Part shown: positions 10,442-61,940 of the stretch, piece by piece
Layout: the number at the start of each line of letters is the position of its first letter
Numbering within the stretch: position 1 is the stretch's first letter
NCBI GenBank assembly: GCA_013815775.1
Contig: JACDFN010000001.1
Location: 45,883 to 109,882 of the forward strand
DNA from: Candidatus Saccharimonadota bacterium
Lineage (GTDB): Bacteria; Patescibacteriota; Saccharimonadia; Saccharimonadales; UBA10212
Length of the DNA: 64,000 nt
Reading direction: 5' to 3'
Notes under the pieces: generated by a model
Told to the model about the DNA's origin: nothing
The model's input: only the letters and a program-made list of their open reading frames with translations
The model's database searches: none
Made by a program: the position numbers and the translations under genes

Positions 10442-10467
10442 TAATTACTTAACATGTTAAGTAATTA
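10442..10467. repeat. Perfect 26-bp palindrome TAATTACTTAACATGTTAAGTAATTA (copy 1 of the recurrent motif)
   Basis: Read directly. It starts 1 nt after the stop of the LexA-like gene and lies between convergent genes. Confidence 0.9.
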
Positions 10468-10494
10468 GCTTTAGGATAACTTCATTAAAGGCTC

Positions 10495-10707
10495 TTACAC
10501 CATGTAGACGATGATGGCTAAGATAACCACCAAGGCTACAATACCTATGATCATTTTCTGGGTAGGCTTTTTACCTGGTGCCGCAGAGGGGGTTACTGGG
10601 TCGACCGGAGTAGTTGGTGAAGCTGGAGGTGTTGTTGGGGTTGGGTCGACCGCAGGTGGGGGCGTGGTAGGTGTTTGTGTTGGGGTGGGTGTTTCTTGTG
10701 GGTTCAT
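10495..10707 (-). CDS. Small Pro/Thr-rich protein with a C-terminal TM anchor
   Basis: PT-rich N-terminus and IIGIVALVVILAIIVYMV tail; AAGGGA lies about 9 nt upstream of the ATG. The antisense ORF 10511..10813 is judged spurious. Confidence 0.45.
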   Translation of the reverse strand: MNPQETPTPTQTPTTPPPAVDPTPTTPPASPTTPVDPVTPSAAPGKKPTQKMIIGIVALVVILAIIVYMV

Positions 10708-10847
10708 AAAGTTTATCCCTTTAAATTTATATTTTTATTGTAGCACAGCAACCCCCGTTAGCATTTATAATTTAAGCAGTAATAGGAATTCGACTGAGGC
10801 AGTAGTCATATAAGTCAATTATTCTCGCCGGATGTGTACTTAGCGGC

Positions 10848-13148: not shown

Positions 13149-13240
13149 CTTCTATAATAAAGTAGAATTAAAAGCTACTGTATAGCTAACTATATATCTT
13201 AAGATGTGAAATTTCTAACTTCTTATTTCGAAAGAGTGGG

Positions 13241-13921: not shown

Positions 13922-14077
13922 CTGGATAATCCCCTATAAGTTAGCTAATTGTAGTATTTTACTTAAATCTTTACTAATTAACACCAATGGCTTAGGCCTA
14001 TTGTAGTTAAAAATCTTACAGAAATAATATCCCTACCAAATGATACTGGGATTATTAATTAAATAAAGGAGTTGTAA

Positions 14078-14344: not shown

Positions 14345-14374
14345 CGCGAAGCTTTAACAGAGCACTAACGAATT

Positions 14375-15515: not shown

Positions 15516-15854
15516 TTAGTATCTGTTGTTTGAACGGTTGTCTCGGTTGTAGCCACCGCCACCACCGCCACCGCCAAATCCACCACCGCCACCGCGTGGT
15601 CGGTCTTCTTGGGGACGAGCTTCGCTAACTGTAACGGCTCGGCCTTCAAGTTCCTTGCCGTTAAGCTCAGAAACAGCTTTTTGAGCTTCTTCCTCTGTGC
15701 TCATTTCGACAAAGCCGAAACCCTTGGAACGGCTTGAATCCCGGTCCACAATTACTTTTGCTGATTGTACTGTGCCAACAGAAGCGAAAAACTCTTGGAG
15801 TTGATCGTCTGTGACGGAGTAGGCCAATGAACCTACAAAAAGTTTAGTTGCCAT
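15516..15854 (-). CDS. RRM-type RNA-binding protein with a Gly-rich tail
   Basis: RNP-2 LFVGSL, RNP-1 KGFGFVEM, and a C-terminal GGGGGFGGGGGGGG tract. Confidence 0.9.
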   Translation of the reverse strand: MATKLFVGSLAYSVTDDQLQEFFASVGTVQSAKVIVDRDSSRSKGFGFVEMSTEEEAQKAVSELNGKELEGRAVTVSEARPQEDRPRGGGGGFGGGGGGGGYNRDNRSNNRY

Positions 15855-15997
15855 AACTTCTCCTATTTACTTGCTCGGAGGTAATCTGGCAACCAGATAG
15901 CTGCACCTCAAACGAAACACTGATTTACTATTTTCTAGAACGAACCGAAGAAACTTCAGGTTATTTAGCAGCCTATTTCTAGCTGGCTCAGTATAAC

Positions 15998-16016
15998 ATA
16001 CTTGTCTGTTAAGTAA
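15998..16016. repeat. Degenerate copy of the recurrent palindrome (ATACTTGTCTGTTAAGTAA), one base short
   Basis: It fills the 16-nt spacer of a minus-strand promoter-like pair upstream of the RRM gene: TTGACT (rc of 16017-16022) and TATGTT (rc of 15995-16000). Confidence 0.5.
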
Positions 16017-28341: not shown

Positions 28342-28922
28342 GCTACCTAAGAATTTTTTTGTCTAGCAGTTTAAACAAACCAGGCGCGAACATTAAAAGA
28401 CGTACGGTCTCGATGGGTGTAGCCCAGAGACATAAGGCTATTTATACCCTTTCTAGAAAAAATAGCAACAATATCCTCTTCATTAACTTAAGCTCTATAA
28501 TAATTAAATAACAGAGGAAGTGCTATTATGATTAACCTTGACTTTTATCTTAAAAAATACTAGAGTTACCTTTAAAGACGTGGAAGTTGTGTATCTGTTT
28601 AATATTAAGAGGGTTTCTTTTCAGTTCATTGTTCGATTTTTGTACTGACCACCCCAGCTGAAGTAGCAGTATAGAAACCGGATAAAGAATATCCGGGCCT
28701 GCGGCTCGCTCAAATTATCTATCAAGAAAGGAGAGCTAGTAGCCTGCAGGGCTTAATGCACCTTTACAAATAGTTGTACTCTATTCAAATTTATACAAAA
28801 ACCACTCGAGGAGAAGCCTAGATAGCTAGGGGCGCAGAGGTGATTAATCTTAATCGCCTGCCCGTCTCTAGTTATCGAACCTGTCTAAAGAGGCAGGGCC
28901 ACAACAGCACGAAAAGAGAGAG

Positions 28923-30059
28923 GTGGTGTACGTGGAGAGTGGCGACGATCTACCGATCGGACCCCCGACCAGAGGGGGACGTGCAATCGCTGAAGCTGAA
29001 CCCGATGGTCGACAAGACCACACGGGGACTGAGGCGGCTCTGAATTCGCATGCCCCAACGCCAGTTCAAGAAGTGGCGCATCCGCAGCCCGAGAAAAGTG
29101 GTCCTAAAAAACCACGACGCAGCCGGCTGCAAGACGCCCCAACTGCTCGTCAGCAGACAACGGGTCCGCGACCGCAGTACGGCGTCCACGGCGTCATCTG
29201 GAAGCTGGGTGGAGCCTGGCTCTATTCTCGCTTCGGCTGGAAATGGCTGATCAGGCTGTCGCTACGCGACCGCTTCGAGAACGCCATGGAGTCACTCTGG
29301 GATCTGAGGAAGACTCAGATGGTCATCGCGACTGTGAACAGCAAGGGTGGCTCGGGTAAAACCACGGCCACCGTCTGGCTCAGCGCGTTCTTGGCTTTCG
29401 TACTCAAGCGCCAGATCGTGGCGTTTGACGTCAACGAAAGTCCGGGGCACACAGCCAAGCGGTTGGGTGTTGACCGCGAAGAAACGATTCAGCTACGTGA
29501 GTTTCTGAGTCGTCGCAACAGCCTGAGGCATTACGACAGCTTTGCGAAAGTCGTTGCCTCTCACCGTCAAACCGGTGTTTCCGTTATCGCGTCGGAAGAA
29601 GCGTCCATCGAAAGTCTCCATCAGGAGGACTTCGAGGAAGCTCTCTATATCGCTAAGCGGAACGCTCACTCAGTGTTCTGTGATTGCGGAAACGTCATCG
29701 ACGGACCAACCAACTACGGAGCGGTCAAGAAGGCCGACGTCGTTGTCTTTACTGGCATTGCCGGGTTCGATGATTCACTCGACGACATCAGCAACACGAT
29801 GAAACGCTACACCGACCTCGGCTATGCCGAAAAGGTGAAGAGCGGTATTGTCGTGATCTTTGGTGCATACAATCGAAATCGAGGTGAGTTCGCAGCACGC
29901 TACGGTCTACCAATCGGCCGCGTCTTCGTCGTGCCGTTCAACAAGTACATGGCGAGGAACAACCCTGTTCTCCTCGACATGATTCCTCGGCAGGTGCAAG
30001 TAGTCCTGCTCGAGATCTTGGTGGCCATCGCCAAGGCCGCCCAAGCCCCTGAGACGTAG
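28923..30059 (+). CDS. MinD/ParA-family P-loop ATPase with a long disordered N-terminus
   Basis: Deviant Walker A in MVIATVNSKGGSGKTTATVW. GTG start with GAGAGAGG upstream. Confidence 0.75.
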   Translation: MVYVESGDDLPIGPPTRGGRAIAEAEPDGRQDHTGTEAALNSHAPTPVQEVAHPQPEKSGPKKPRRSRLQDAPTARQQTTGPRPQYGVHGVIWKLGGAWLYSRFGWKWLIRLSLRDRFENAMESLWDLRKTQMVIATVNSKGGSGKTTATVWLSAFLAFVLKRQIVAFDVNESPGHTAKRLGVDREETIQLREFLSRRNSLRHYDSFAKVVASHRQTGVSVIASEEASIESLHQEDFEEALYIAKRNAHSVFCDCGNVIDGPTNYGAVKKADVVVFTGIAGFDDSLDDISNTMKRYTDLGYAEKVKSGIVVIFGAYNRNRGEFAARYGLPIGRVFVVPFNKYMARNNPVLLDMIPRQVQVVLLEILVAIAKAAQAPET

Positions 30060-30111
30060 GGATGCAAAGGGAGCAAAGCAAGTCCACCGCCAACACAATC
30101 CGTCAGGAGAG

Positions 30112-30408
30112 ATGATGTTTGCAGTTCTCACACTGGTCGCCCAGCAGGCGCCAGATGTAGGGCCCGTGCTGAACTTCCCAGGATCGGAGTGGGTGATCAA
30201 CATCCTCAACGTCCTTCTGGGAATCATCGCGTTCGCCCTGATCGCGATCTTCTTCGTCGGCCTCTTCAAGCTGATCGGCAGCCTGGGGGGGAAGCGCGAG
30301 GGTGCTACCAGCGCCGCTGGCATTCAGATGATCGCATCTGTTGTCGGCCTGCTTGCCGTCTTCGCCGGTGGAGCGTTTCTCAACCGCTGGGTCGACTTCA
30401 TCGGCTAA
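30112..30408 (+). CDS. Small two-TM protein, VirB2/TrbC pilin-like (context-based call)
   Basis: 98 aa: signal-like N-terminus, two hydrophobic helices (VINILNVLLGIIAFALIAIFFVGLF and IASVVGLLAVFAGGAF). It is the first gene after parA-like and is followed by a stem-loop. Confidence 0.4.
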   Translation: MMFAVLTLVAQQAPDVGPVLNFPGSEWVINILNVLLGIIAFALIAIFFVGLFKLIGSLGGKREGATSAAGIQMIASVVGLLAVFAGGAFLNRWVDFIG

Positions 30409-30428
30409 CGCGCAGAACCAATGGAAAC

Positions 30429-30460
30429 AGAGGTAGGTCACAATTCCGTGGCCTACCTCT
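30429..30460 (+). promoter_or_regulatory. Intercistronic stem-loop after the pilin-like gene
   Basis: AGAGGTAGGTCAC-aattcc-GTGGCCTACCTCT (13-bp stem, one mismatch), with no T-run. Confidence 0.5.
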
Positions 30461-30481
30461 TGTCGTCAGAGGAGAGTTCAC

Positions 30482-31204
30482 ATGCCCAGGAAGATCTTCA
30501 CGTTCTTGGTGCTGGTCGGCCTGGTGGTAGTTGCTGTCCTGATTATCGGGAGCTACACACAACCACAGCCGAATAGCGCAACTGCGCCAAATACCGCAAC
30601 CCCAAGCATCGCCCAGGCACCGCAAAGAACTGTTCCAGCTCCACAGACACCAAAGCCGCCTACAGCGTCCAAGGCCAGCAAGAAACTGAAGAAACCACTG
30701 GTCAAAGATGCGATTACGGCGGCCGCAACGGCAACCAGCAACCTGTCCGTTGCCCAGTTCCTGCCACGTGAGCAGATGCTGCAAATCGTGAAAGGCTGGG
30801 TCATCCCGAAGGAGCGTTTGTTCGTAGCGCAGAACTATGTCCAATCGGGGCCGAAGGTTGCACAACTCTTGGGCTACCAGAGCCCAGAGGAAGCCAGAGT
30901 CCGAGCCGGCTACTACGTCAGCCCGCAGAAGTACCGCGTGGTTGACTTTGGAGGTGGAAAAGCGACGGTAATGCTCTACACCATTTCGCACTGGGTCACT
31001 TCCCTGAACGACGAATATCGGGCTCCCGGTATCACCGTTATTCAGGTGAAATGGCTACGTGGCAAGTGGCTGTACGTTCGTTCGTACAATCCGCCCATCT
31101 CTCAGGTACCGACACCTCAAGTCAACCTGACCTTCGATGAGACTGTGCGGCAGTTTCAGCCCTACCTAAAGGAGTTCAAGGACTATGCGAACCCCACTAA
31201 ATAG
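30482..31204 (+). CDS. Bitopic membrane protein, possible VirB8/TcpC-like component (context-based call)
   Basis: N-terminal TM helix (IFTFLVLVGLVVVAVLIIG), a Pro/Ala-rich linker, and a globular C-terminal domain of about 140 aa. Confidence 0.35.
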   Translation: MPRKIFTFLVLVGLVVVAVLIIGSYTQPQPNSATAPNTATPSIAQAPQRTVPAPQTPKPPTASKASKKLKKPLVKDAITAAATATSNLSVAQFLPREQMLQIVKGWVIPKERLFVAQNYVQSGPKVAQLLGYQSPEEARVRAGYYVSPQKYRVVDFGGGKATVMLYTISHWVTSLNDEYRAPGITVIQVKWLRGKWLYVRSYNPPISQVPTPQVNLTFDETVRQFQPYLKEFKDYANPTK

Positions 31205-32276
31205 GCTGGCGTGGCTGCCGCTCGTTTTCCTCTGTGTGACGACCATCACGGCCTCCCGGTCGATGGTCGCACCCGAGGAAGCAAAAGCGGCCTCCAACGT
31301 TCCGCCCGAATCGTGCGCTTCAATCCCAGACCCGATGATGCGCAAGTTCTGCGAGGCACCGCCTGCGCAGTTCATTCCCGGGATTCCTAATCCGGTCGAC
31401 CTGGTAACCGGCGCAGTCTCAGCAGCAGCCGGCGCCATTGTCGAGCCAATCTTCAACCAGATCGTTCAGGCTGAAGCCAAGGCTGTCCTTTCAGTTCTGA
31501 ACGAAGAGGTCGAGTTCGTGAATTCCAATTCCACTCCAGTCCTGACGTCTATCTGGTTCACAGGGCTGTACAAAATTGTCTTCGGCTTAGCCGTGTTCCT
31601 GGCTATCGGCCTGTTCTGGGTCCGCTTTACCGAGGGGGCCAAGAACCAGGATGTCGAAGACATGGGAAACACCGGGCTGGCGATTCTGCTCTTCTTCCTA
31701 CTGGGAGCAACAATGCCCGGGATCGTTGGGGGGCTAGTGGAAGGCTTCGACAATAAAATCGCCCCGGCGTGGATGAACGTCGCCGGCGAGAATGCCACCG
31801 CCACCCTAAAAGGGTTGGAGACCGATTTCAACGAAGAACTCTCGGCCAGCAACAATCCCATCGTGCCGATTGTCTTGCCGCTGATCTACCTGTTTTTCGG
31901 GGTAATCGGCGGTATCGTCCTCCAGATCATGCTGTTGTTCCGCGAAGGCATGCTCTACGTCGTAACAGCGGCGGAGGTCATCGCAATCGCGGGTTGGGTC
32001 GGTGGACGGTGGGGCATCAACATGCTGGAGAGGACCTCTATGGCGCTAATTGCCTTGATTCTCTTCAAGTGCATCGTGTCCTTCATCTTGGTCGTCGGCC
32101 TTGCGCTGATGAACGCCAAGGAAGGTGCCTCTCCCATCTTGCTAGGGACGGTGACTCTACTGAGCGTCCCGATTCTGAGCTTGATGGCGTACAAGCGGAT
32201 CTCCGGCCACGACATCGAGGTTAGCCGTGGGGTCAAGTCGTCGCTTGGCTACTTGAACATGCTGCGACGAAGCTAG
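31185..32276 (+). CDS. Polytopic membrane protein, VirB6/TrbL-like (context-based call)
   Basis: Signal peptide plus at least 6 TM helices, 363 aa. It overlaps the upstream gene by 20 nt. Confidence 0.45.
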   Translation: MRTPLNRLAWLPLVFLCVTTITASRSMVAPEEAKAASNVPPESCASIPDPMMRKFCEAPPAQFIPGIPNPVDLVTGAVSAAAGAIVEPIFNQIVQAEAKAVLSVLNEEVEFVNSNSTPVLTSIWFTGLYKIVFGLAVFLAIGLFWVRFTEGAKNQDVEDMGNTGLAILLFFLLGATMPGIVGGLVEGFDNKIAPAWMNVAGENATATLKGLETDFNEELSASNNPIVPIVLPLIYLFFGVIGGIVLQIMLLFREGMLYVVTAAEVIAIAGWVGGRWGINMLERTSMALIALILFKCIVSFILVVGLALMNAKEGASPILLGTVTLLSVPILSLMAYKRISGHDIEVSRGVKSSLGYLNMLRRS

Positions 32277-32357
32277 GACAGTCCATGTGCGGGAGCAGCG
32301 GAACTCTATGCTGCTCCCGCTACCGCAGGGTCGTGCAATTCGACGAAAGGAGACAAT

Positions 32358-33935
32358 GTGGCGCCTGGGGATAACCAGCTGCTACTAGTCCCAAAGGAGA
32401 AGCCGATCCAGGCGGGCCCCTTCAAGATCAACTACAAGGGGTTCTGGATCGTCCTACTCTGCTTCATTTCCTTCTGTGCCGTCTTCGTTTCGGCTGCAGC
32501 TGGTGTGGTCCTCTACGGGCTTGCATTCACCGGCCTGGCTGTAGTTTTCTTCTTTCTTCTCATCGGCATCCAGCCGTTCGAGAGATTGCAGACGACGGCG
32601 CTTGCCAAGTCGTTCAGGGTCGGTAATCACCGAACCAGAAATCAGCTAGGGCATCACCGCCACTCCTCTATTCAGCCAGAGGTTGGCGAAGTGTTCGGTC
32701 TGGAGATGGGCAAGGGCAAGAGGCCCAAGCCCATCAAGCGGATCGGTCGGGTGGACTTCATCCCGTACGACACAGCCAACGCCAAAGGCGTACTGGGGGT
32801 GGCGTTCGACCACCGCTTCAACACCTACTCGGCGACTCTCCAAGCGAATTTTTCGTCGATGATTGGTGCTAGCAAAGCAACCAGGAGAGAACGGCTAGGG
32901 GGCTATGCCAACCTCTTGGACACCATGGCTGAAGTTGGGAGTATGGTCGACCGCTTCAGTTGGAGCGACCAGACTCTCATCGGTGAGAAGCAGTCTCCGG
33001 AGCAAATTGTGGAGGCCATCCGCAGTGGCGCCGGCTTGACTCGCGAGCATCCTCCCAATCAAGAAGTTCTACTTCAGCGGACTGAGCAGATGGGAGAGAA
33101 CTCAGTCATCCACCGAACGTCAATGACCCTGACGATCCGAGCCCCCGCCGTCAAGCGTGAGGCCAGGATCCTGGGCGGGGTAGAAGAGGTCTTGGTGCAA
33201 CAAGCTAAGGCCTTCTATGCCTCGGCGACGGGAAGAGGAGTAGGGCATAGCCCTATCGGACTGAAGTCGGCCAGCTTCCTTGACTACAACCAACTGGTCT
33301 TGGAAAACCGACTGAGACTCGATCCGGTCTTTGCTCAGTCGGTTTGGCAGGAATGGGTTGGCCTAGAAGACACGCAAACTCTGCTGAGCGAGCAAATCGC
33401 TTGGCCCGGTTACGCTGACTTCGAACCGACCGATCACTGCAAGCTAGGGCAAACCGTCCATATGGGCTTCTACATCGCGGAGTTCACGCGGACGGGAATG
33501 CAACCCGATTTGTTCTGGGAAATCCTCAAAGTCCCAGTTCCGAAGACAGTTACGACCGTCTTCGACATGCTGCCTCCGGCCTTGGCCAGGCGGCACGCAG
33601 AATGGAGTACAACTGGAGCTACCAACGTCGTTGTGGAACGTGCGGCAAAATCCCGGCGTGTTACTGCCACTCAGCACAGAGCTGCTGAAGTTGCAGACGC
33701 ACACGAGTGGGAACTAGCCGCCCATCAGGGTCAAGTAGGCAGGATTCGGTGTTACATCGACCTGACCGGCGAGACACTGGACGAGGTACGCTCCAACGCT
33801 GCACAGATGCGCAATGCCTGGGCGGATGCCAGATTTCTGGTTGAACCGCTCGAGGGCAGACAGCATTTAGGAATTCACGCAGTTTTGCCGACTGGGAGGG
33901 GTCTCGTGACCCTGCCCTTCGACAACTGGCTGTGA
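32358..33935 (+). CDS. Membrane-anchored protein, candidate VirB3-like/VirB4 N-terminal-domain protein
   Basis: Two N-terminal TM helices followed by a soluble region of about 430 aa with no P-loop. It sits immediately upstream of the ATPase-domain gene. GTG start with an AAGGAG Shine-Dalgarno sequence. Confidence 0.4.
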   Translation: MAPGDNQLLLVPKEKPIQAGPFKINYKGFWIVLLCFISFCAVFVSAAAGVVLYGLAFTGLAVVFFFLLIGIQPFERLQTTALAKSFRVGNHRTRNQLGHHRHSSIQPEVGEVFGLEMGKGKRPKPIKRIGRVDFIPYDTANAKGVLGVAFDHRFNTYSATLQANFSSMIGASKATRRERLGGYANLLDTMAEVGSMVDRFSWSDQTLIGEKQSPEQIVEAIRSGAGLTREHPPNQEVLLQRTEQMGENSVIHRTSMTLTIRAPAVKREARILGGVEEVLVQQAKAFYASATGRGVGHSPIGLKSASFLDYNQLVLENRLRLDPVFAQSVWQEWVGLEDTQTLLSEQIAWPGYADFEPTDHCKLGQTVHMGFYIAEFTRTGMQPDLFWEILKVPVPKTVTTVFDMLPPALARRHAEWSTTGATNVVVERAAKSRRVTATQHRAAEVADAHEWELAAHQGQVGRIRCYIDLTGETLDEVRSNAAQMRNAWADARFLVEPLEGRQHLGIHAVLPTGRGLVTLPFDNWL

Positions 33936-33946
33936 GAAAAGGTGTG

Positions 33947-33979
33947 CTCGTCGGCGGAGGATTTTTCTCCGCCGACGAG
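33947..33979 (+). promoter_or_regulatory. Perfect 13-bp stem-loop between the two VirB4-like halves
   Basis: CTCGTCGGCGGAG-gattttt-CTCCGCCGACGAG. A second hairpin, CAACAAGC-taaa-GCTTGTTG, lies close downstream. Confidence 0.6.
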
Positions 33980-34076
33980 TCTCCGTCAACAGCAACAAGC
34001 TAAAGCTTGTTGCCTTAAACGGGGATAGGACAACTAAGTTCACCCTGGAACCTAAACAATTCGAAAAAAGGACAAG

Positions 34077-35405
34077 GTGATTACCGTGCCTGTTGAGGAT
34101 GTTCTAGAAATACTTGCAGGCGACCGCCTGCCTTTTCACCGTGCAACCTCTCATCACTTGAGCGGAATCCATCCGTTTTTCGCCGAAAGCGGCCTTATCG
34201 ACAGCCGTACACACAAGAAGGCGCTTGGGATTCCGTATGGCTATTGCGGGCGAGAGCGTTCTGGCGGACTTTTCGACTTCGACGAGTACTCGCTTTACCA
34301 AGCGGGTTTACTCCACAATCCCAACGTTAAGGTTTTCGGCGAGATTGACCACCGCAAGTCGACCGGAGTCAAGTGCATGATCTTTCGCGGGGCAGCCATG
34401 GGGTACAATCACCTCGTTACCGACCGCAAAGGCGAGTACACGCCGCTTGCTGAAGCTATTCCAGGCAGCAAGGTCTTGAAGTTCGGTGAAGACACAAATC
34501 TCTTCATCAGTCCGGTGGACAAGAGCATGGACACGATCACCCAACGCGATTTGATCGCATCGATGGTTATCACGGCCATGGGGGGTGATCGCAAGAACCT
34601 CAACATCCGTGAGACCTCACTGCTGTGGGAAGCAATCAAAGCCGCCCATGAGCACTTCGGTATGGGAAGCGGAGGAGTAGCGACTCTACCCGTAGTGGTA
34701 GAGAAGTTGTTCAACCCAACCCAAGACATGGCTGACGCCATGAGCCGGCCTCCCAAGTATCTAAAGGAGCTGGGCTACGACATGGCTCTTGGTCTGCGCC
34801 GGTTGACAGAGACTGACCTGAAGGGCATGTTCCACAAGGAGACCACGACAGGTCTCTTCGAGGATACGCCCCTGCTTGTCATGAACTGCGAAGGTGTTAC
34901 CGGAGAAGCTGCAGTGATCATGATCACCCTCATCAACTTCTTCACTCAAAGCCAGTGGGGGAGGGCAGACGCCCGCTACCGCTTCCATAAGGTTATCCAC
35001 GACGAGTCGTGGGACCTGGCGGCCTACCCTGGCTTTGTTGAGTCGGTGCGGAGGGCTTTCAAGCTCGGACGAACCTGGGGTGTGGCTAACTGGATTGTTG
35101 CCCACCACATGAGTAATCTCTATCGGTCGGGTAAAGATGAAGCCATCAAAGATCTGGTGGCTGACTCTGACACCACCATCAGCTACAAGCAACACGCGCC
35201 AGAGCTGGTGCATAGCGCCGAGGAGCTGGAATTCAACGAGACTGAGGTGGCCCGGATCACTGAGCTGGAACCCGGACGAGCCATCTACAAGATCGGTAAT
35301 CAGCCGGGTATCGAAGTCGAACAGCAGGTTTGGCCAGAAGAACGCCCGCTGGTGGAGACAAGTCACCTGATGCATGGGAAGACTGAGTTGGCCAAGGCAA
35401 GCTGA
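34077..35405 (+). CDS. VirB4/TraE-type secretion ATPase domain protein with a degenerate Walker A
   Basis: VFGEIDHRKSTG sits where GxxGxGKS/T is expected. LVTDRKGEY matches the DxKGEY block. FHKVIHDESWDL is the hhhhDE Walker B (DEAW-like). Confidence 0.6.
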   Translation: MITVPVEDVLEILAGDRLPFHRATSHHLSGIHPFFAESGLIDSRTHKKALGIPYGYCGRERSGGLFDFDEYSLYQAGLLHNPNVKVFGEIDHRKSTGVKCMIFRGAAMGYNHLVTDRKGEYTPLAEAIPGSKVLKFGEDTNLFISPVDKSMDTITQRDLIASMVITAMGGDRKNLNIRETSLLWEAIKAAHEHFGMGSGGVATLPVVVEKLFNPTQDMADAMSRPPKYLKELGYDMALGLRRLTETDLKGMFHKETTTGLFEDTPLLVMNCEGVTGEAAVIMITLINFFTQSQWGRADARYRFHKVIHDESWDLAAYPGFVESVRRAFKLGRTWGVANWIVAHHMSNLYRSGKDEAIKDLVADSDTTISYKQHAPELVHSAEELEFNETEVARITELEPGRAIYKIGNQPGIEVEQQVWPEERPLVETSHLMHGKTELAKAS

Positions 35406-35434
35406 TACAGAAGCCAAGAGAGAGGGGGGTAGCA

Positions 35435-36589
35435 GTGGCTACCACCAACAAAGATAAGGAGCCAACTGCCAAGGACTTCGCCGTTAAGGTGGTAAAAAGC
35501 AAAGTTCTGACTTGGGCGTTGGGGCTGATAGGGGCGTCCGCTATCCCCTTGCTCCTCGCCCTACTGCTTGTGGTGGCGGTATTCGCCGCTTTAGCGGCTT
35601 CGTCGTCTACCAACACCGGTGGAACGCCCAGTTCACTGGCTCAGGAGCTAATCCCTCCGGAAATGCTGGCTCTGTACCAATCCGACTCGGTAAAGAGCCA
35701 GTGTCCTGGTCTGTCATGGACCATCGTGGCGGCCATCATCCACCTAGAGTCGAACGATGGTCGCAACAAGGCTGTTTCCTCTGCTGGAGCGAGAGGGCCA
35801 AGCCAGTTCCTCCCAACCACCTGGGATTCACAGGGACGGTTGGTTGTAGACGTTGGGATGCCGTACGGCAAGATCCCCGACGGTGCCGGCTACGGTCTGG
35901 ACGGCGACGGGGACGGCTTGGCCGACATCGAAAATCCGTACGATTCAGTGCCAGCAACTGCCCGGTTGTTGTGTGCGAATGGAGGCGGAGAAGAGAGTAC
36001 CCTCCCCAACGCCATCTACTCGTATAACCGTGCTTGGTGGTACGTTTACGGCGGGACTTCAGACAGCGGTACTCCGTTTGAAGGGGTCATACCGCTGGCC
36101 GCTCGTTTAGGGTCCACTTTCCTAACCGATGGTGGTCTGGCTGGTTCAGGCAAGAGAGTCACATACGATGGCCGGCCCAACTGGCTCGAAGCTGTACCAA
36201 GCACGAACTATGTCTGCGACTATCGCATAGTCGCAGATGTGCAAAGGCTGATACAGATGGGCCTGACGGTCACTGCGTGTTACGCTCTTTCCGGGCACGC
36301 TACCGATGGAGAACATCCACTGGGACTGGCGATTGATGCCGTTCCTGTAGACGGTAACTGGGACAGAACCTTGGCGGTTGCAGAAGCCGTTGGCTGGAGG
36401 CCGTCGTGCGCTTCTAGCGGCTGTGCCAGCCAAATGCCTTCACCGTTCCGGTTCGTTGGGTACAACGGTTACCCAGGACACGGTGATCCGTGGAACTGTC
36501 TTTGTGGCAATGATGCTCACATTCACCTCTCGTGGATGCATGCACCCTCGTTTCCAGGTATTCCAGCAGCCTGGGTCGAAGTGATGTAG
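35435..36589 (+). CDS. Bifunctional cell-wall hydrolase: lytic transglycosylase (SLT) domain plus LAS-type metallopeptidase domain
   Basis: N-terminal TM helix. SLT motifs: IIHLESNDG (catalytic Glu-Ser) and GPSQFLPTTW. C-terminal SGHATDGEHPLGLAIDA (Hx..D) and DAHIHLSW (HxH). Confidence 0.75.
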   Translation: MATTNKDKEPTAKDFAVKVVKSKVLTWALGLIGASAIPLLLALLLVVAVFAALAASSSTNTGGTPSSLAQELIPPEMLALYQSDSVKSQCPGLSWTIVAAIIHLESNDGRNKAVSSAGARGPSQFLPTTWDSQGRLVVDVGMPYGKIPDGAGYGLDGDGDGLADIENPYDSVPATARLLCANGGGEESTLPNAIYSYNRAWWYVYGGTSDSGTPFEGVIPLAARLGSTFLTDGGLAGSGKRVTYDGRPNWLEAVPSTNYVCDYRIVADVQRLIQMGLTVTACYALSGHATDGEHPLGLAIDAVPVDGNWDRTLAVAEAVGWRPSCASSGCASQMPSPFRFVGYNGYPGHGDPWNCLCGNDAHIHLSWMHAPSFPGIPAAWVEVM

Positions 36590-36640
36590 AGCATGAAGTG
36601 CAAGGCCTGCTTTAACCCAGCTCGCCTTGCTAACTACAAT

Positions 36641-37918: not shown

Positions 37919-38686
37919 CTAACTTTCTGGTGTAGGTTTTTTTAAAATTTCTTCGATGCTAGAGCCCCAAAATACTCCCTTTGCTTCGTCTAATAACCGC
38001 TCTTTAGCTTCAAGATCAATACTCTCGTCCATATAGCCCCTATTAAAAAGCCACCGATTCATAGCATAAAACTGCTCTTTAATTTTTTTATAATTTGCTT
38101 TAACTGGTTGGCTTTCGGCTTTATATACTACATACTCATCAAGTAATTGCTCTGGAAGATTATTTTGGAGCATGGCGTTACCAATTGAACTGCCAGCCGG
38201 TCTAATACTTAAGTCAATTTCGACTGGTCCATCAATTCCGGGTGCTTCCAAGTCAAGATGATGCAATACAGCAAACTGTTGGTGTTCACCTCTTCCCGCA
38301 GGTTGGTCTTTTTCGTAGGGTACTAGAGGGGAAATTTTATCTGATAAATCTCGAATGTCTTTTTCTGTTGCCTGGGAATCTGGGAGCAACAATCTTAGGT
38401 CGATATCGTTGTTTCCCCTAAGCGCTGTTCCTGAGACTAAAGACCCGCCAAGTCTTACTATTGCTCCGTCGGGCAATAAAGCTTTAAGCTTTTGGGAATA
38501 TTCGGTTGCTATTCCTATAAGCTTGTCCTGATTGGGATTTCGTTGGGCGTCCGCTCTTTCTTTTATGCCAGCTGGATCTAACGACTCAGAATGACCATTT
38601 CCAAACATGTCTTCTTCAGCGAAACGATTAAAATCGTATTCACTACGTAGTTCAGCGCCAGCATCCAGATTAGGTATCTTTCTCAT
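37919..38686 (-). CDS. Pol-beta-superfamily nucleotidyltransferase
   Basis: LGGSLVSGTALRGNNDIDLRLLL is the hG[GS]x9-13DxD signature and resembles OAS/CD-NTase-type GS..GT..DxD. A third acidic residue is a candidate in VEIDLSI. Confidence 0.6.
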   Translation of the reverse strand: MRKIPNLDAGAELRSEYDFNRFAEEDMFGNGHSESLDPAGIKERADAQRNPNQDKLIGIATEYSQKLKALLPDGAIVRLGGSLVSGTALRGNNDIDLRLLLPDSQATEKDIRDLSDKISPLVPYEKDQPAGRGEHQQFAVLHHLDLEAPGIDGPVEIDLSIRPAGSSIGNAMLQNNLPEQLLDEYVVYKAESQPVKANYKKIKEQFYAMNRWLFNRGYMDESIDLEAKERLLDEAKGVFWGSSIEEILKKPTPES

Positions 38687-38775: not shown

Positions 38776-38801
38776 ATAATACTTAACATGTTAAGTATTA
38801 T
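38776..38801. repeat. Perfect 26-bp palindrome ATAATACTTAACATGTTAAGTATTAT (copy 2)
   Basis: Read directly. It lies in a divergent intergenic region, 58 nt upstream of the ATG at 38859. Confidence 0.9.
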
Positions 38802-46322: not shown

Positions 46323-46426
46323 ATAAGTTCGCCTTCGCGCTTAGCGCGAACTGGTCCTGCTCTTCCTTTAGAGAAGAGTACGAAGTCCGACACAGCATTT
46401 TAAGTAAATAGACTCCCGAGCAGGAG

Positions 46427-46450
46427 AAATACTTGACTTGTTAAGTATAT
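46427..46450. repeat. Imperfect copy of the recurrent palindrome (AAATACTTGACTTGTTAAGTATAT)
   Basis: The 16-mer core at 46431-46446 differs from ACTTAACATGTTAAGT at 2 positions. It lies between the riboswitch-like element and the terminator hairpin. Confidence 0.7.
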
Positions 46451-46455
46451 TATCA

Positions 46456-46485
46456 CCTCTGCCGGGATAGCAGGGGTATTTTTTT
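46456..46485 (+). terminator. Terminator / SD-sequestering hairpin; candidate riboswitch expression platform
   Basis: CCTCTGC-cgggata-GCAGGGG followed by TATTTTTTT. The GGGG in the 3' arm is the only Shine-Dalgarno-like element before the TTG start at 46484. Confidence 0.6.
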
Positions 46486-47980
46486 GGAACAGTTAGCTAC
46501 TAGAGAAGAGTTAAAGCACGAAGGTATTTACGCCGATACTTATTTTATTGATAGGGGCAATACTGAAAAGGAAGCTAGGCAACTGCTGGAACAGAGAAGC
46601 CAACTGCCAACTGTTGAGGTAGCTAGGCAGGAGAGGATAGATAACGCCCGCACAGCTTTAATGGAAGCCCTTACTGCTTCGGGGCATTTATCACGTGTTG
46701 AAATCAGCGGAACTCTAGAAGATATAAATAATCAGATATTAACCCGTCTTCTAAATGGCTGGGATGAAAACTTGCCTTTTCACGAAAAGGAGCGAAGGTT
46801 TGCTGAACTTTGTAACGAACTGGTTATTCAGAAAGTTCATGTTCTTATAGTGCAAGGAGAGCTACCCGAAGACTTGGCTGTGACTGAGATTTCGGACTAT
46901 CCAATGTGTCTCGATGAAGACACAGCTGCAGCGCTTGGATACCGGAGCAGTAACCAAAAGGGTATGGTTCGCTCAACACACCTAATAGATGAGGGCGATG
47001 GCATATATACTCGCCTGATTGAACAGCCTAGTCGCAGCAACGGAACAAACAGTACCATTAAATTCTTCCAGTCAGCGGGAATTAAAATTGAGGAAAATGC
47101 GCCCGACCTCTCAGCCCTTAGGGCACCCTTCTTATACAGGGTGTCTGACTACAAACATGGTGTCGTTGATATCATGTGTTTGCTGGATAGACACACCGGA
47201 CCTGACGTAATTTACGGAGACACTGGCGAGTTGGCTAACATACATGCACCTTACGAAAGTCTCAGAGAAGAATCTAGCCGCAGAGAGAGGGAAATTGAGT
47301 GCTATATAGAGGACCTTGCAAGTTTGGAAACCCAACTAGACTACTTAACTACAAGCGGAGATATAAGCTACTCAGAACGCACAGAATTATTCAAATCTGA
47401 GGTACGGCGTATTCTGGCTGCTGTTTGCACCTTAGACCCAAGTTATGCCCAAGACACCTTCGGCAAAGAAACAGCCCCTTATTTTTATGAGGCCGCCCTT
47501 ATGACGTCTTCGGGAAATTCTCGAGGGGCACAAGAGCTACTATCAGCAACCGAACACCTTCAGGAAACCATAACATTCTGTGGTGTATCGATTTCGGTCA
47601 GTGAGGCTCAGGAGAAAGGTGTAGCGCTAAATAGTTATCTCCAATTGGTAGAAAAAGGTCGAAATGCCTGGAAGTGGAAAAAAGGCGAATGTATTGTAGC
47701 TCAGTGTCCTAGTAAACCAAAAAGGGTAGAGATAGGCCCATGTAAGGTTTGCCGGAGTTGTCAGGATATATTTGACAGCGGCAATGACCCTAAAAATGTT
47801 TATGGTTCCAGTGACATGAAAAAAGGTCAAGACAAACACAAGGAGAGTGATTGGCAGCGTATTAAAAGGGAGGATCAAGAAAACCGAGTACTTCAAAGAA
47901 AGCAACGGGAGCTAGCGGTTGCTATGAAGTATCAAAATATGAGGCTGGCCAGACGGGGGCAACTGGCTAAGTCAGCCTAA
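46484..47980 (+). CDS. Hypothetical 498-aa protein with a C-terminal zinc-ribbon-like CxxxC..CxxC motif
   Basis: Long ORF containing AQCPSKPKRVEIGPCKVCRSC, then a basic Lys/Arg-rich tail. TTG start and no recognisable family. Confidence 0.5.
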   Translation: MEQLATREELKHEGIYADTYFIDRGNTEKEARQLLEQRSQLPTVEVARQERIDNARTALMEALTASGHLSRVEISGTLEDINNQILTRLLNGWDENLPFHEKERRFAELCNELVIQKVHVLIVQGELPEDLAVTEISDYPMCLDEDTAAALGYRSSNQKGMVRSTHLIDEGDGIYTRLIEQPSRSNGTNSTIKFFQSAGIKIEENAPDLSALRAPFLYRVSDYKHGVVDIMCLLDRHTGPDVIYGDTGELANIHAPYESLREESSRREREIECYIEDLASLETQLDYLTTSGDISYSERTELFKSEVRRILAAVCTLDPSYAQDTFGKETAPYFYEAALMTSSGNSRGAQELLSATEHLQETITFCGVSISVSEAQEKGVALNSYLQLVEKGRNAWKWKKGECIVAQCPSKPKRVEIGPCKVCRSCQDIFDSGNDPKNVYGSSDMKKGQDKHKESDWQRIKREDQENRVLQRKQRELAVAMKYQNMRLARRGQLAKSA

Positions 47981-56945: not shown

Positions 56946-57265
56946 CCCTTAATGAATATCAAGAAAAAGCACTAGCAACTGCAATCGATGAAGGCTCGGA
57001 ACTAATGCAAAGAGTTTTGGGCTTAGTTGGAGAAAGTGGGGAAATAGCCGATAAAATAAAAAAGTGGTATCGGGACGATAAAGCTGACCCGCAAAAATTA
57101 GATAAAGCCGCCATCGCTGCTGAGCTAGGGGATACTTTGTGGTATGTAGCGGCTCTGGCAGACTACTTAGGGCATAGCTTAGATGATGTAGCCGCCTACA
57201 ATCTTAATAAATTATCGGATCGCCAAAAACGGAGTAAATTAGGAGGTAGTGGGGACTCCCGCTAG
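56942..57265 (+). CDS. MazG-like nucleotide pyrophosphohydrolase (small all-alpha NTP-PPase)
   Basis: [23 protein letters not shown] and [17 protein letters not shown] overlap with tsaC. Confidence 0.8.
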
Positions 57266-57340: not shown

Positions 57341-57368
57341 AAAAATACTTCACATGTTAAGTATTTTT
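57341..57368. repeat. Palindrome copy 3: AAAAATACTTCACATGTTAAGTATTTTT (28 bp, one mismatched pair)
   Basis: Read directly. It overlaps the stop codon of the glycosylase gene, between convergent genes, and is flanked by A5 and T5 runs. Confidence 0.85.
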
Positions 57369-58734: not shown

Positions 58735-59291
58735 TGGACCGCCCATATATAGGTGCTAGACAAACTTCGACCACGGACGGTCAATTACCACCTATTTCTA
58801 CCCCCTTGCAGCCACCAAAACCGGAAATGATGCAGCCTATTCCCGTAAAAATCCAAGACGTAAGTAGCGGGGTGAATCCAAACAACCCTCCCCGTAGGGC
58901 TATAGACGGTATAAGTGCTGGTTCCGACAAGGAGCTTGAACAAGTCTTAAAAGACACCAGCCATAATATTAAAAACCCTGCGAGAGTCCCGGACAAGCAA
59001 TTTAACCCAATGTTAAAAGCTAAACCGAAGAAAGACTGGCAGATAGCCCACTTCCTGCCAGCAATCATCGCTGTTTTAGTGGCCGGAACACTGGCCTACG
59101 CCGCGGTATACTCCTATAAACAGTCTGATTTACCGAAAGTACAAGACTTTACCAACCAAACGGGCAGCGCCTCGTTAACTCCACAGACTTTGGAAGATTT
59201 TTATCAGTCTGCAAGTTCTCAGCTCAATAGCTTGAATGACAACCAGGACTTTAACCCAACTGATTTAAGTGATGAAAAACTCGGCCTATGA
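58734..59291 (+). CDS. Hypothetical single-pass membrane protein
   Basis: Pro-rich N-terminus and TM helix HFLPAIIAVLVAGTLAYAAVY. ATG overlaps the upstream stop. Confidence 0.45.
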   Translation: MDRPYIGARQTSTTDGQLPPISTPLQPPKPEMMQPIPVKIQDVSSGVNPNNPPRRAIDGISAGSDKELEQVLKDTSHNIKNPARVPDKQFNPMLKAKPKKDWQIAHFLPAIIAVLVAGTLAYAAVYSYKQSDLPKVQDFTNQTGSASLTPQTLEDFYQSASSQLNSLNDNQDFNPTDLSDEKLGL

Positions 59292-59923
59292 GAATTACTA
59301 AGTTTGTGCACTCCTGCCTATTGATTGAAACAGCCACTAAAACAGTTTTGATTGATCCGGGAAAGTATAGCTGGGATAGTCATCTGCTAACCATTGGTAA
59401 AATTGAGCGCTTAGACTACATTGTAATTACTCACGAACATTCCGATCATTACCATCTGCCGTTTCTACAAGCTTTAATAAATCATTTCCCCCACTCAACC
59501 ATCGTGACTAATAGTGACTTAGCTAAGAAAATTAGCAGTGAAGAAGTAAGGAATAAAATTATAAGTGGCAGTGAAGCCGGCATGCAAGTTTTTGAAGCTG
59601 ACCATGAACCCTTACCAATGGGTATCCGGGTGCCTCTAAACATGGGCGTCCATATTGATGAGCAGTTTACGCATCCGGGAGACGCTGTCCACCTTTCGCA
59701 CACACGTAATATACTCGCACTGCCGGTTTCTGCTCCGTGGATTAGCCTTAAGCAATCGCTTGAAGCAGTTCTTGTGCTAAAGCCGTCAAAGGTTATCCCG
59801 ATTCATGATTGGCACTGGCATAAGCAGGCCCGCGAAGAGCAGTACGCTCTGGCTGAGCAATGGCTGCTGCCACACGGGATTAAATTTGTTGCACTCCAAA
59901 ATGCTGTACCCGTAGAGCTCTAA
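59288..59923 (+). CDS. MBL-fold metallo-hydrolase
   Basis: ITHEHSDHY (HxHxDH) with downstream His/Asp residues. Confidence 0.7.
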   Translation: MRITKFVHSCLLIETATKTVLIDPGKYSWDSHLLTIGKIERLDYIVITHEHSDHYHLPFLQALINHFPHSTIVTNSDLAKKISSEEVRNKIISGSEAGMQVFEADHEPLPMGIRVPLNMGVHIDEQFTHPGDAVHLSHTRNILALPVSAPWISLKQSLEAVLVLKPSKVIPIHDWHWHKQAREEQYALAEQWLLPHGIKFVALQNAVPVEL

Positions 59924-61263
59924 ACCCTTACAAATTCGTTTCTTAGCCATTCATCCAAACTTCCACCACCGCCCCCGCTCATTGCCACCACTAAATCTCC
60001 ACCATCAAGATGCCCTTTAATTGTCTGGACCAGATCTTCGTCCAACTCCATGGGCTTGGCAACCTCCTGGAGCTCGGGACTCAGGTTCTTTATAAGTTCA
60101 GCAGGCTTTAGCACCGGTTGGTGCGGGTCCTCGCGTGACAAGTAGCTGGGGACCCAATATATAGCCGAAGCCCCTTCAAAAACATCCTTATGATCGTTTG
60201 CTGTGTAGTGCATGCGGCGGTTGGTTAGCGGTTCATAAATAATTACTATCTTTTGTGCGGTTTTAGCGGATATCTCCCCGGCTACACTCATACAACCCAG
60301 AATTTTTTCCGGTGTGTGGGCATAGTCGCTGTATAGATTATCGGCTATCTTCTCAAAACGCCTTGACAACCCCGGGAAGCGATTCAAAATTTTAATAAGT
60401 TTTTCTTCCGGTTCATTAGTCAGGTAGCCCAGGGCCTTAACTACCAAAAACGCATCACGGCGATTGAACAACCCTATTAACTTGAGCATTTCGATTCCTG
60501 GATCACTATAGGACTCTACGGCTAGCCTCTTGTCGTTAAACGAAAGACCAAGCTTCTCAGCATCTTGATCCCACAGCACAGTTCGCTCGCTTTGCTCTAT
60601 AAAATCCCCAAACGCTTCGTTGTAATCACCCTGGGTGGGGTAAATTTCATGGTGGTCATAGGCAATACCAACTATTATCGACAGATAGGGGTGGAAAGAT
60701 AAGAAATTACGGTCAAATTCATCGGCTTCATAAACAAAGTATTGACTGTCTGGTTCAAAATGTCCCATTTCACCGAAATTTATTTTAGCTCCCACTGAGT
60801 AGCTAAGCTTAATTCCTAGTTCCTTAAAGGCCCAGATAGTCATGGCGGTAGTAGTAGTTTTACCGTGAGTGCCAGAGATTGCTATAAGCTTAAGCTTTTT
60901 CTGCGATAAAATCTCATTCAACAAATCGTCCCTCTTGGAGGAACGTATATTACATTGCTTTGCGAATAAAAGTTCTGGATGGTTTGGGTTTGTTCTTGGG
61001 AGCGCAGAACTATAGACAAACCAATCTACAGGCTTAGCTTTATGCACCCTAGATATTGCTTCTTTAGTCTGCCCGATGTGAATATCATTGATTCCGTGAG
61101 CTTTCAAATAATCAATATACTGGCTGTTATGAATATCTGAACCACTAACTACATAGCCCGCTTGTTTAGCGATAAGAGCCAGCGGACCGATGCCCGTACC
61201 GCCGATACCGGAAAAATAAATATGCATACTGATAAGTTTAGGATTAAACGGTAGATGTGGCAA
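59920..61263 (-). CDS. murC: Mur ligase, UDP-N-acetylmuramate-L-alanine ligase-like
   Basis: IYFSGIGGTGIGPLALIAKQAGYVVSGSD (the MurC-type N-terminus) and ISGTHGKTTTTAM (P-loop). Confidence 0.75.
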   Translation of the reverse strand: MPHLPFNPKLISMHIYFSGIGGTGIGPLALIAKQAGYVVSGSDIHNSQYIDYLKAHGINDIHIGQTKEAISRVHKAKPVDWFVYSSALPRTNPNHPELLFAKQCNIRSSKRDDLLNEILSQKKLKLIAISGTHGKTTTTAMTIWAFKELGIKLSYSVGAKINFGEMGHFEPDSQYFVYEADEFDRNFLSFHPYLSIIVGIAYDHHEIYPTQGDYNEAFGDFIEQSERTVLWDQDAEKLGLSFNDKRLAVESYSDPGIEMLKLIGLFNRRDAFLVVKALGYLTNEPEEKLIKILNRFPGLSRRFEKIADNLYSDYAHTPEKILGCMSVAGEISAKTAQKIVIIYEPLTNRRMHYTANDHKDVFEGASAIYWVPSYLSREDPHQPVLKPAELIKNLSPELQEVAKPMELDEDLVQTIKGHLDGGDLVVAMSGGGGGSLDEWLRNEFVRV

Positions 61264-61940
61264 TTCAAGAAATCGTAAGTGTTTTGACGCAGGGGCTAAA
61301 CCGTGTAAACATAAGGGTAGTTATGAGTAGTTCTAGAGCTAAAACACTTAACAAGTTAAGTAATTTCAGCAATATCCCTCTCTGGGTACTAACAATAATT
61401 TTTATTGTTAGCGGTGTGTTCTCTGTTTACCAATTGCGACAGAATAATCAGGAGATGATAAAGTTACGCAACGCTGTATATGTGGCCGATGAAAAAGGCG
61501 GAAATATTGAACTTGCGCTAAGGAATCTACGGAGTTATGTATATTCACACATGAATACTAACCTATCTAGCGGGGGTAATGCCATTAAGCCGCCAATTCA
61601 GCTTAAGTACAGCTATGAGCGCTTGCAGGCTGGGGAAGCTGCGCGAGTGCAAACCGTTAATGAGCAGGTTTATACCGATGCCCAATCCTATTGCGAACGC
61701 CAAAATGCAGCTGACTTCTCCGGTCGCAATCGAATACCGTGCATTGAGAGCTATGTTACTACTCACGGGGCTAGACCTAACCCTGTTTCGACCTCGCTTT
61801 ATCAATATGACTTTATAAGTCCAAGCTGGTCTCCGGATCTGGCTGGATGGAGCCTAGTATTTACGGGGGCAATCGGGCTAATGCTTGTAGCCAGCCTAGT
61901 ATCAAATAGGCTTATTCGGGCTAAACTTAGCCCCTTGTGA
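61257..61940 (+). CDS. Hypothetical two-TM membrane protein (the true start is probably the ATG at 61323)
   Basis: TM helices IPLWVLTIIFIVSGVFSVY and WSLVFTGAIGLMLVASLV. No family was recognised. Confidence 0.5.
   Translation: MAIQEIVSVLTQGLNRVNIRVVMSSSRAKTLNKLSNFSNIPLWVLTIIFIVSGVFSVYQLRQNNQEMIKLRNAVYVADEKGGNIELALRNLRSYVYSHMNTNLSSGGNAIKPPIQLKYSYERLQAGEAARVQTVNEQVYTDAQSYCERQNAADFSGRNRIPCIESYVTTHGARPNPVSTSLYQYDFISPSWSPDLAGWSLVFTGAIGLMLVASLVSNRLIRAKLSPL
61346..61361. repeat. Palindrome copy 5 core: ACTTAACAAGTTAAGT (one mismatch to the consensus)
   Basis: Read directly. It lies 83-98 nt from the murC start codon on the opposite strand, inside the first codons of the 61323 ORF. Confidence 0.75.

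Follow-up and report, generated by a model that had tools for sequence, protein, structure and literature searches.

A palindrome conserved across Saccharibacteria and maintained within genes is a candidate operator of a MarR-family regulator

What role could one palindromic sequence play at five separate places in 64 kb of a bacterial chromosome? The question is raised by a 64-kb stretch (the window) of contig JACDFN010000001.1, part of a metagenome-assembled genome (MAG) of Candidatus Saccharibacteria, in which a 16-mer, ACTTAACATGTTAAGT, recurs within a longer palindrome with the window consensus TACTTRAC-NN-GTYAAGTA. Saccharibacteria genomes are small and, in our impression, encode few regulators, and how genes are controlled in these or other Patescibacteria is, to our knowledge, almost wholly unexplored. 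Here we describe a palindrome that is real, specific to this clade and functional at the DNA level, and we propose, with an even chance of being right as judged from sequence comparison, that it may be the operator of a class-wide MarR-type regulator that would control its own gene at the ksgA–marR spacer and have tens of further sites. A literature search for the 16-mer sequence found no paper containing it and no description of the element, so it would represent a previously undescribed cis-element, class-wide in distribution, for which a candidate regulator can be named.

A mismatch scan of the window located exact copies of ACTTAACATGTTAAGT at 10447-10462 and 38781-38796, copies with one mismatch at 57347-57362 and 61346-61361, and a copy with two mismatches at 46431-46446, and widening the scan to three mismatches revealed no extra copies in the window. 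Dinucleotide shuffles predict 0.01 matches at up to two mismatches and 0.39 at up to three, and none of 100 shuffles reached five copies. A first reading of the window made from the letters alone (the sequence-only reading) had proposed a recurrent palindrome with five clear copies and one degenerate copy and had suggested shuffled controls as a check; the coordinates of the five copies are confirmed and the motif stands above the shuffles in the window. Numbered in order along the window, the sites are as follows, with the doubtful sixth copy given last.

Site 1, 10446..10463, TACTTAACATGTTAAGTA, core of the perfect 26-bp palindrome 10442-10467
Site 2, 38780..38797, TACTTAACATGTTAAGTA, core of the perfect 26-bp palindrome 38776-38801
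Site 3, 46430..46447, TACTTGACTTGTTAAGTA, a TTGAC variant
Site 4, 57346..57363, TACTTCACATGTTAAGTA, inside a 28-bp near-palindrome with A5/T5 flanks
Site 5, 61345..61362, CACTTAACAAGTTAAGTA, 82 nt upstream of the start of a MurC-like ligase gene (61263, minus strand)
Doubtful sixth copy, 15998..16016, ATACTTGTCTGTTAAGTAA, right half TGTTAAGTA intact, half-site spacing one base short

The palindromes at 10442-10467 and 38776-38801 are the only perfect ones with arms longer than 11 nt among the longest 25 of 34 inverted repeats, and the 28-bp palindrome at 57341-57368 carries a single mismatched pair between its A5/T5 flanks, all three as the sequence-only reading had described them. With the degenerate form ACTTRAC-NN-GTYAAGT, four window copies are perfect and one has a single mismatch (expected 0.72), and an 18-mer that adds the T/A flanks retrieves the identical five copies. 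Isolated half-sites are not enriched, as eight of ten TGTTAAGT/ACTTAACA occurrences in the window fall in the six listed copies. Nor did k-mer enrichment in the window, which is unremarkable, reveal a shorter core present in many more copies. The same genome has no further copy in the 9.4 kb that precede the window.

The window copies occupy several kinds of position. Site 1 lies between the stop codon (10441) of a gene encoding a protein with a LexA DNA-binding domain (DBD) and the stop codon (10495) of a convergent minus-strand 70-aa open reading frame (ORF), and its left half is used by a plus-strand promoter-like match, TTAACA-17-TAGGAT, that is no more than chance gives. The convergent ORF (10495-10707, minus strand) encodes a Pro/Thr-rich protein with a C-terminal membrane helix and is likely the real gene when set against a 100-aa plus-strand ORF; minus-strand ORFs of 53 and 65 aa occupy the same position after the LexA-like gene in the related loci L210 and L213. 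Site 4 is placed between a convergent MazG-like gene (plus strand, ending at 57265) and an HhH-GPD glycosylase gene (minus strand, stop 57357) and overlaps the stop codon of the latter, so both of the copies that had been noted between convergent genes are found there. Site 2 separates two divergent genes, a 255-aa NTP_transf_2 gene that starts at 38686 on the minus strand and a plus-strand SufS-like cysteine desulfurase gene. It lies ~62 nt before the likely ATG of the latter (38859) and takes up the spacer of a promoter-like match on the minus strand, GTGATA-17-TATTAT, directed toward the NTP_transf_2 gene; the earlier placement 58 nt upstream of a class V aminotransferase gene was broadly right and shifts only in distance. 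The same holds for Site 5, which had been put about 90 nt upstream of murC and which also falls within the first codons (TLNKLS) of a divergent 205/227-aa membrane-protein gene. MurC-like ligase orthologues in four other loci (L087, L090, L110 and L115) carry the exact motif within the coding sequence instead.

Site 3 stands 37 nt 5′ of a 498-aa gene (46484-47980), between two outward-facing terminator-like hairpins, and its position is conserved, with ACTTGACTAGTCAAGT found 38 nt 5′ of the start of the orthologous gene in L212. The hairpins span 46413-46487, and the plus-strand one (46455-46477), which has a T-run after it, stops immediately short of the TTG start codon of the 498-aa gene; it may be a leader or attenuator, or the gene start may be miscalled. 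An Rfam scan of the window returned a tRNA-Asn as its sole match and no riboswitch near 46431, where a riboswitch-like leader had been suggested. The sixth copy falls in the spacer of promoter-like matches of an RRM-protein gene, as the sequence-only reading had noted, and it is indeed one base short; its status as a motif copy is doubtful because only one half is intact, the half-site spacing is short, and the RRM promoters in five other Saccharibacteria loci carry no motif at that position. The RRM gene itself (15516-15854, minus strand) has a long 5′ leader (15855-15990) with blocks conserved in L005, L040, L074, L203 and L217 (ctagaaa..gctgcta, ttctag, and gag.agcta.ctgg...gccagattacctccg) and no Rfam match, and this leader may be an autoregulatory structure. 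Promoter-like matches in the window are not above shuffles and were therefore used as geometry only.

The palindrome is shared across the clade. We scanned one genome per species for the exact 16-mer, and the figures that follow rest on 120 loci listed, of at least 120 in total. At least 63 of the 120 belong to Saccharimonadales, Saccharibacteria or other Patescibacteria MAGs with GC contents of 0.35-0.58, several of which matched on several contigs. Among the matches listed, ~47 of 64 exact clade copies lie inside ORFs, always in the sole stop-free frame and encoding the peptide LNMLS, in genes for RuvA (13 times), ComEC, Dus, RecX, LigA, KsgA, HisS, GlyA, FolD, TilS, MurA, MurJ and a MurC-like ligase. 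These intragenic copies arose through point substitution in homologous codons and not through insertion. In intergenic copies the T and A at ±1 are almost invariant, extending the motif to an 18-mer, G and C are tolerated at positions 5 and 12, and the centre dinucleotide is variable (AT, GC, GT, AC, AA, TT, TA, AG). Many copies in the clade loci are found 0-20 nt past a stop codon. ORFs in the fetched loci are greedy calls, and the loci are related by descent, such that counts are not fully independent.

Density varies across these genomes. The window genome holds five copies in 73.4 kb (~1 per 13 kb), the relative L213 has three in 20 kb, and other Saccharibacteria DNA contains ~21 copies (up to two mismatches) in ~1 Mb, or ~1 per 48 kb with locus-defining sites excluded; extrapolation gives tens of copies per 1-Mb genome, roughly 20-80. 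At the tsaE–tsaB junction (L016 3461, L093 794, L128 19524) the motif overlaps the tsaE stop codon or ends 2 nt before the tsaB start and thus covers the tsaB translation-initiation region, and in L056 it lies inside tsaB. A viral collection gave only three matches to the 18-mer, with unrelated flanks, and a link to phages was dropped on that result; a cyanobacterial origin and a relationship to HIP1-like palindromes were also dropped once the genome scan and the NCBI name of a window protein had placed the window in Saccharibacteria, a placement with which its gene content is in agreement.

To guard against ascertainment bias, we recovered 80 ruvA loci from metagenomes using degenerate peptide patterns and not the motif. 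The site is exact in 27 of these loci, one base off in 27 and two bases off in 12. Across 74 distinct ruvA genes the codons at the site are nearly fixed as CTT AAC RTG TTA AGT while neighbouring synonymous sites are randomised, and codon use at the site departs from that of the same genes as follows.

Leu CTT, 61/73 at the site, background in the same genes 14.5%
Leu TTA, 60/74 at the site, background in the same genes 12.9%
Ser AGT, 59/74 at the site, background in the same genes 16.8%
Asn AAC, 65/71 at the site, background in the same genes 50%

Third-position information reaches 1.15-1.55 bits within the motif, compared with 0.02-0.6 at four-fold and Leu positions and near 1.0 at two-fold codons. 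A second constrained site occurs in comEC (Pfam Competence), 2-3.4 kb upstream in the cluster comEC-yebC-ruvC-ruvA, where ATA GTT AGC RYG TTA AGT ATT is kept in ~19/25 lineages and the left half is the nearest approach to the motif that the peptide IVS permits. Where the ruvA site is missing, as in L190, comEC has no site either, a correlation that is partial; L192 is another lineage that has lost the sites. Together, these patterns of codon use indicate, at the level of sequence, that selection acts on the DNA itself at the ruvA and comEC sites.

Which protein might read such a sequence is suggested by the genes that flank intergenic copies, among which a MarR-family gene directly 3′ of ksgA recurs. 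Six further MarR loci were fetched through MarR homologues and not through the motif, and in all six the ksgA–marR spacer contains the motif. It precedes the start of the ksgA-linked MarR gene by 6-45 nt in 9/9 loci (L045, L063, L097, L201, L203, L205, L208, L217 and L218), where the chance of a match per 100-nt region is ~1e-3 per locus, and in L004 an unrelated MarR gene has it at −47. In L097, L205, L208, L217 and L218 the left half supplies TTGACN as a −35 element with a −10-like hexamer 17-18 nt downstream, as in TTGACG-17-TATAAT (L208) and TTGACG-18-TATACT. Among 34 oriented sites, a −10-like hexamer lies gene-ward in six (the five marR promoters and L053) and in the reverse direction in none; the idea that the motif serves as a general bidirectional −35 element was rejected, as only these 6/34 sites have a −10-like hexamer at 16-18 nt and five of them are marR promoters. 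A palindrome or pseudo-palindrome of ~16-20 bp whose two half-sites are about one helical turn apart, positioned in a marR promoter and overlapping the −35/−10 region, is the arrangement that a MarR operator would be expected to have, and the 18-bp palindrome with its variable centre has it at these loci.

The ksgA-linked MarR gene is usually followed by MFS transporter genes and belongs to a subfamily of 2086 clusters at E <= 1e-30, in which the recognition helix QTEASISRQIK and the wing NRREH are invariant or nearly so across 30 diverse aligned members, a constancy equal to that of the motif. Its nearest solved relatives by sequence match to the PDB are generic MarR proteins, and it scores below the NCBIfam cut-offs for BilQ (48.9 vs 125), HpaR (30.8 vs 121.2) and AdcR_fam (25.8 vs 175). 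Many members end in His-x3-Cys-x7-8-Cys, which shorter 141-aa members lack, and this C-terminal His/Cys segment may serve to sense metals or redox state. The association with marR is seen in related genomes; the 64-kb window and the 9.4 kb that precede it encode no MarR protein.

We infer from these associations that the MarR protein binds the palindrome and that binding has an effect at each site. A homodimeric winged-helix protein, probably of the MarR family, would bind duplex TACTTRAC-NN-GTYAAGTA, with each monomer presumably reading one TACTTRAC half-site and the central two to four bases left unread. At the marR promoter, where the site overlaps the −35 element and the spacer, binding would repress marR itself and the adjacent transporter genes, and some ligand or a redox or metal signal would release the predicted MarR. 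The same protein would also target the five window copies, at the divergent promoter of the SufS-like and NTP_transf_2 genes, 5′ of the 498-aa gene, between the divergent MurC-like and membrane-protein genes, and at the two convergent gene ends. Elsewhere in the clade, the ruvA and comEC sites might serve as roadblocks, as partners in looping or as anchors outside transcription. An operator of a dimeric regulator was one of the options raised by the sequence-only reading and is the best-supported class of explanation; the LexA-DBD protein named there as the regulator is not supported, and the promoter motif at 9/9 MarR loci points to MarR in its place.

Several observations weigh against a MarR operator. 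Two of the five window copies (10447 and 57347) are situated between convergent stop codons, where neither promoter nor operator is expected. Of the intergenic clade copies, ~24 are in tandem, 6 in convergent and 4 in divergent spacers, roughly the background proportions and with no bias toward promoter-containing spacers. Most exact clade copies are intragenic, in unrelated housekeeping genes and distant from downstream starts, and the surroundings of the ruvA site show no further block of conserved synonymous positions that might represent a −10 element. The marR promoter might instead be the target of another protein. Finally, the flanks of intergenic copies are complementary in 88% of cases at ±2 (67% expected) and in 81% at ±4 (36% expected; n=26), a covariation that counts against the proposal because a homodimer on duplex DNA does not predict it. 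Template switching that perfects palindromes would provide a neutral explanation for this covariation, with a hairpin function as the alternative. Flank covariation, background spacer proportions and start-distant intragenic sites together keep a non-transcriptional reading alive.

Alternatives that retain the palindrome and replace its reader or its function were therefore weighed against the MarR operator, and those invoking a LexA-like protein, a terminator or an uptake signal are each weaker than it. The LexA-like candidate is the protein whose gene ends next to Site 1.

LexA-DBD-only protein, 9953..10441, plus strand, 162 aa, Pfam LexA_DNA_bind only (residues 14-73)

This protein is identical to NCBI H0X09_00280 (Candidatus Saccharibacteria), has more than 6500 homologs at 70-90% identity and is near-universal in Saccharibacteria, where its gene follows a wzy-gtrA polysaccharide cluster with tiny gaps. 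It would, on an improbable reading, bind the palindrome as the operator of a damage- or repair-flavoured regulon (ruvA, recX, ligA, comEC, the AlkA-like glycosylase and MazG) together with the marR promoter. A LexA-type winged helix, an extreme conservation across the clade on a par with that of the motif, several motif-bearing genes whose products act on DNA (RuvA, RecX, LigA, ComEC and the glycosylase/MazG pair of the window) and the window copy that abuts its stop codon fit such a role, and the outer bases TACT...AGTA may resemble the E. coli SOS box. However, the gene sits in the wzy-gtrA operon and has no motif beside it in 4/4 other genomes (L210-L213), the one window copy lies past its stop codon with no box upstream of the gene, and the protein has no S24 peptidase domain and scores 54.9 against a cut-off of 110.95 with NCBIfam TIGR00498 lexA (model positions 5-102 of 203). 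In L128 no site lies upstream of recA and one is found inside recX, and the motif-bearing genes are mostly housekeeping rather than repair genes. A hairpin in RNA or single-stranded DNA, acting as a weak bidirectional terminator or insulator or belonging to a REP-like palindromic family spread or perfected by template switching, would account directly for flanks that are self-complementary yet variable (the palindrome reaches 38 bp in L038), for the many copies 0-20 nt after a stop codon and for the two window copies between convergent genes, one with A5/T5 flanks. We regard it as decidedly improbable, since the AT-rich stems are weak (−5.4 to −9.6 kcal/mol, z-scores −1.3 to −2.5), a terminator scan of the window gave no site overlapping any copy, both arms are conserved in sequence and not merely in pairing, single-sided A5/C12 variants on the transcribed strand would break the RNA pair, and most clade copies are intragenic and derive from point substitution. 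An RNA hairpin with a wobble-tolerant orientation was rejected because variants in one arm only are found in either orientation with respect to transcription. Weak stems, the lack of an overlapping terminator and a location in ORFs for ~47/64 exact clade copies are not the properties of an intrinsic terminator or REP element, for which a stable GC-containing stem with a U-tract after it, in intergenic DNA only, would be expected; the sequence-only suggestion of a palindromic repeat doubling as a terminator thus loses ground, with flanks that do extend the palindrome beyond chance set against weak hairpins, T-runs in one copy and a mostly intragenic distribution.

Two further explanations look beyond transcription to the chromosome as a whole. 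Known DNA uptake sequences occur at roughly 1 per kb, hundreds to thousands per genome. Saccharibacteria are naturally transformable through ComEC (PMC10633639), and the palindrome could be an uptake signal accumulated via biased uptake and recombination, for which a competent host clade (PMC10633639), DNA-level selection inside conserved genes, sharing across the clade and the occurrence of sites in comEC, ruvA, recX and ligA would all speak. We nonetheless consider this highly improbable: at 1 per 13-48 kb the density is one to two orders below that of known uptake sequences, sites are fixed at particular codons and one promoter and not scattered, and synthetic linear DNA transformed S. epibionticum with no stated need for a signal (PMC10633639). 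A search for literature pairing Saccharibacteria with 'uptake sequence' found none, and the uptake sequence offered by the sequence-only reading, favoured by competence and intragenic selection, is disfavoured by low density and gene-anchored sites. An unlikely reading is that the palindrome is a chromosome mark and not a promoter operator, bound by a site-specific protein, possibly a co-opted MarR-type one, that organises the nucleoid, times division or loads a complex. In other bacteria, SlmA and its binding sites (SBS), Noc and its binding sites (NBS), MatP and matS, RefZ and its binding motifs (RBM), and ParB and parS provide such marks. Coding, tandem, convergent and divergent copies without clear preference, strong synonymous constraint on ruvA and comEC copies that have no nearby promoter signal, a site in the MurC-like neighbourhood that shifts between an upstream and two intragenic positions as if the region needs it, and ~20-80 copies per genome by extrapolation, within the SBS/NBS/matS range, are consistent with this role. 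Against it, the only consistent gene association is the MarR promoter in a classic autoregulatory geometry, no ParB-, Noc- or SlmA-type gene is linked to the motif in the loci examined, and the sequence is unlike canonical parS. A scan for canonical parS, TGTTNCACGTGNAACA, with up to three mismatches found none in the window, and 1.27 Mb of Saccharibacteria loci gave only chance-level two-mismatch matches, which says little; canonical parS was set aside as an improbable candidate. A Xer/dif-like site, prompted by a partial resemblance to XerD arms, was dropped for its unfitting arm spacing and copy number. A class-wide Saccharibacteria mark read by a co-opted MarR-type or LexA-DBD protein for a non-transcriptional purpose would explain codon-level selection in essential genes such as ruvA and comEC, the copies between convergent genes and the shifting MurC-like position, and is in our judgement doubtful. 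Such a mark might serve in nucleoid occlusion or domain organisation, insulate transcription units in a compact genome, or label self DNA in a competent lineage.

Two other features of the window stand apart from the palindrome. The block 28900-36600 has a GC content of 0.54-0.56 compared with ~0.44 elsewhere, encodes a ParA/MinD-like ATPase together with five large ORFs of 240-525 aa to which Pfam assigns no family, and may be an acquired island. At 6080-6460 (minus strand), a gene for a 23S_rRNA_IVP-family four-helix bundle is located within a glycosyltransferase/polysaccharide cluster.

The ruvA and comEC sites, with their strong synonymous constraint, are the unusual feature. If they are roadblocks or looping anchors they would point to control of the recombination/competence cluster, and if they are non-transcriptional they would suggest a novel system at the chromosome level. 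Saccharibacteria DNA in metagenomes can be recognised by the motif, and recoding of ruvA or comEC should preserve it, a consideration of practical use in organisms that are genetically tractable by natural transformation (PMC10633639).

Like the cre roadblocks of CcpA, the SBS of SlmA, the RBM of RefZ and the parS sites of ParB, the Saccharibacterial element is a palindrome in the 12-20 bp class that can reside inside coding sequences. Sites for parS and RBM are kept at the same gene position across related species, and the ruvA and comEC sites resemble them in this respect, although the palindrome has no sequence similarity to cre or parS. The DNA uptake sequences (DUS) of Neisseria and uptake signal sequences (USS) of Pasteurellaceae are likewise clade-specific, kept in genes by DNA-level selection, hairpin-capable at gene ends and found in competent hosts. 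In contrast to these asymmetric sequences of 9-12 nt with about a thousand copies per genome, the palindrome described here is symmetric over 16-18 bp and has tens of copies, anchored at positions that include a regulator promoter.

Closer parallels come from operators of the MarR family. The zinc-responsive regulators AdcR and ZitR of streptococci and lactococci share the core TTAAC-NN-GTTAA, a MarR-family dimer and a site at the regulator's own promoter; AdcR binds TTAACNRGTTAA and the adcRCB promoter carries ATTAACTGGTTAAT (PMC7012047, PMC4288194). The Saccharibacterial site is longer than that of AdcR, with conserved TAC/GTA outside the core, and its centre is free, such that the commonest centre, AT, breaks the NR rule of AdcR whereas others (AA, AG) fit. 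The Saccharibacterial MarR is not an AdcR orthologue, as judged by its NCBIfam AdcR_fam_Zn_TF score (25.8 vs 175) and by the absence of AdcR among its PDB matches, and zinc-uptake genes were not seen near any examined site, the neighbours of the Saccharibacterial marR being MFS transporter genes. The second parallel is HpaR, whose footprints contain TTAA-N4-TTAA (PMC7180172). At least 35 of the 57 non-Patescibacteria loci listed, all 35 of them Proteobacterial, have ACTTAACATGTTAAGT beside hpaR and the genes of homoprotocatechuate meta-cleavage (including L001, L008 and L019, from Bradyrhizobium, Woeseiaceae, Amphritea and others), and in these loci ACTTAACATGTTAAGT is evidently the conserved HpaR operator, a separate and known system. 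HpaR has a single-locus pathway operator, in contrast to the multi-copy genome-wide motif of Saccharibacteria; no hpa genes occur in the window or the Saccharibacteria loci, and the Saccharibacterial MarR reaches 30.8 where the HpaR model requires 121.2. The presence of the identical 16-mer at hpaR nevertheless indicates that a MarR-family dimer can read exactly this sequence.

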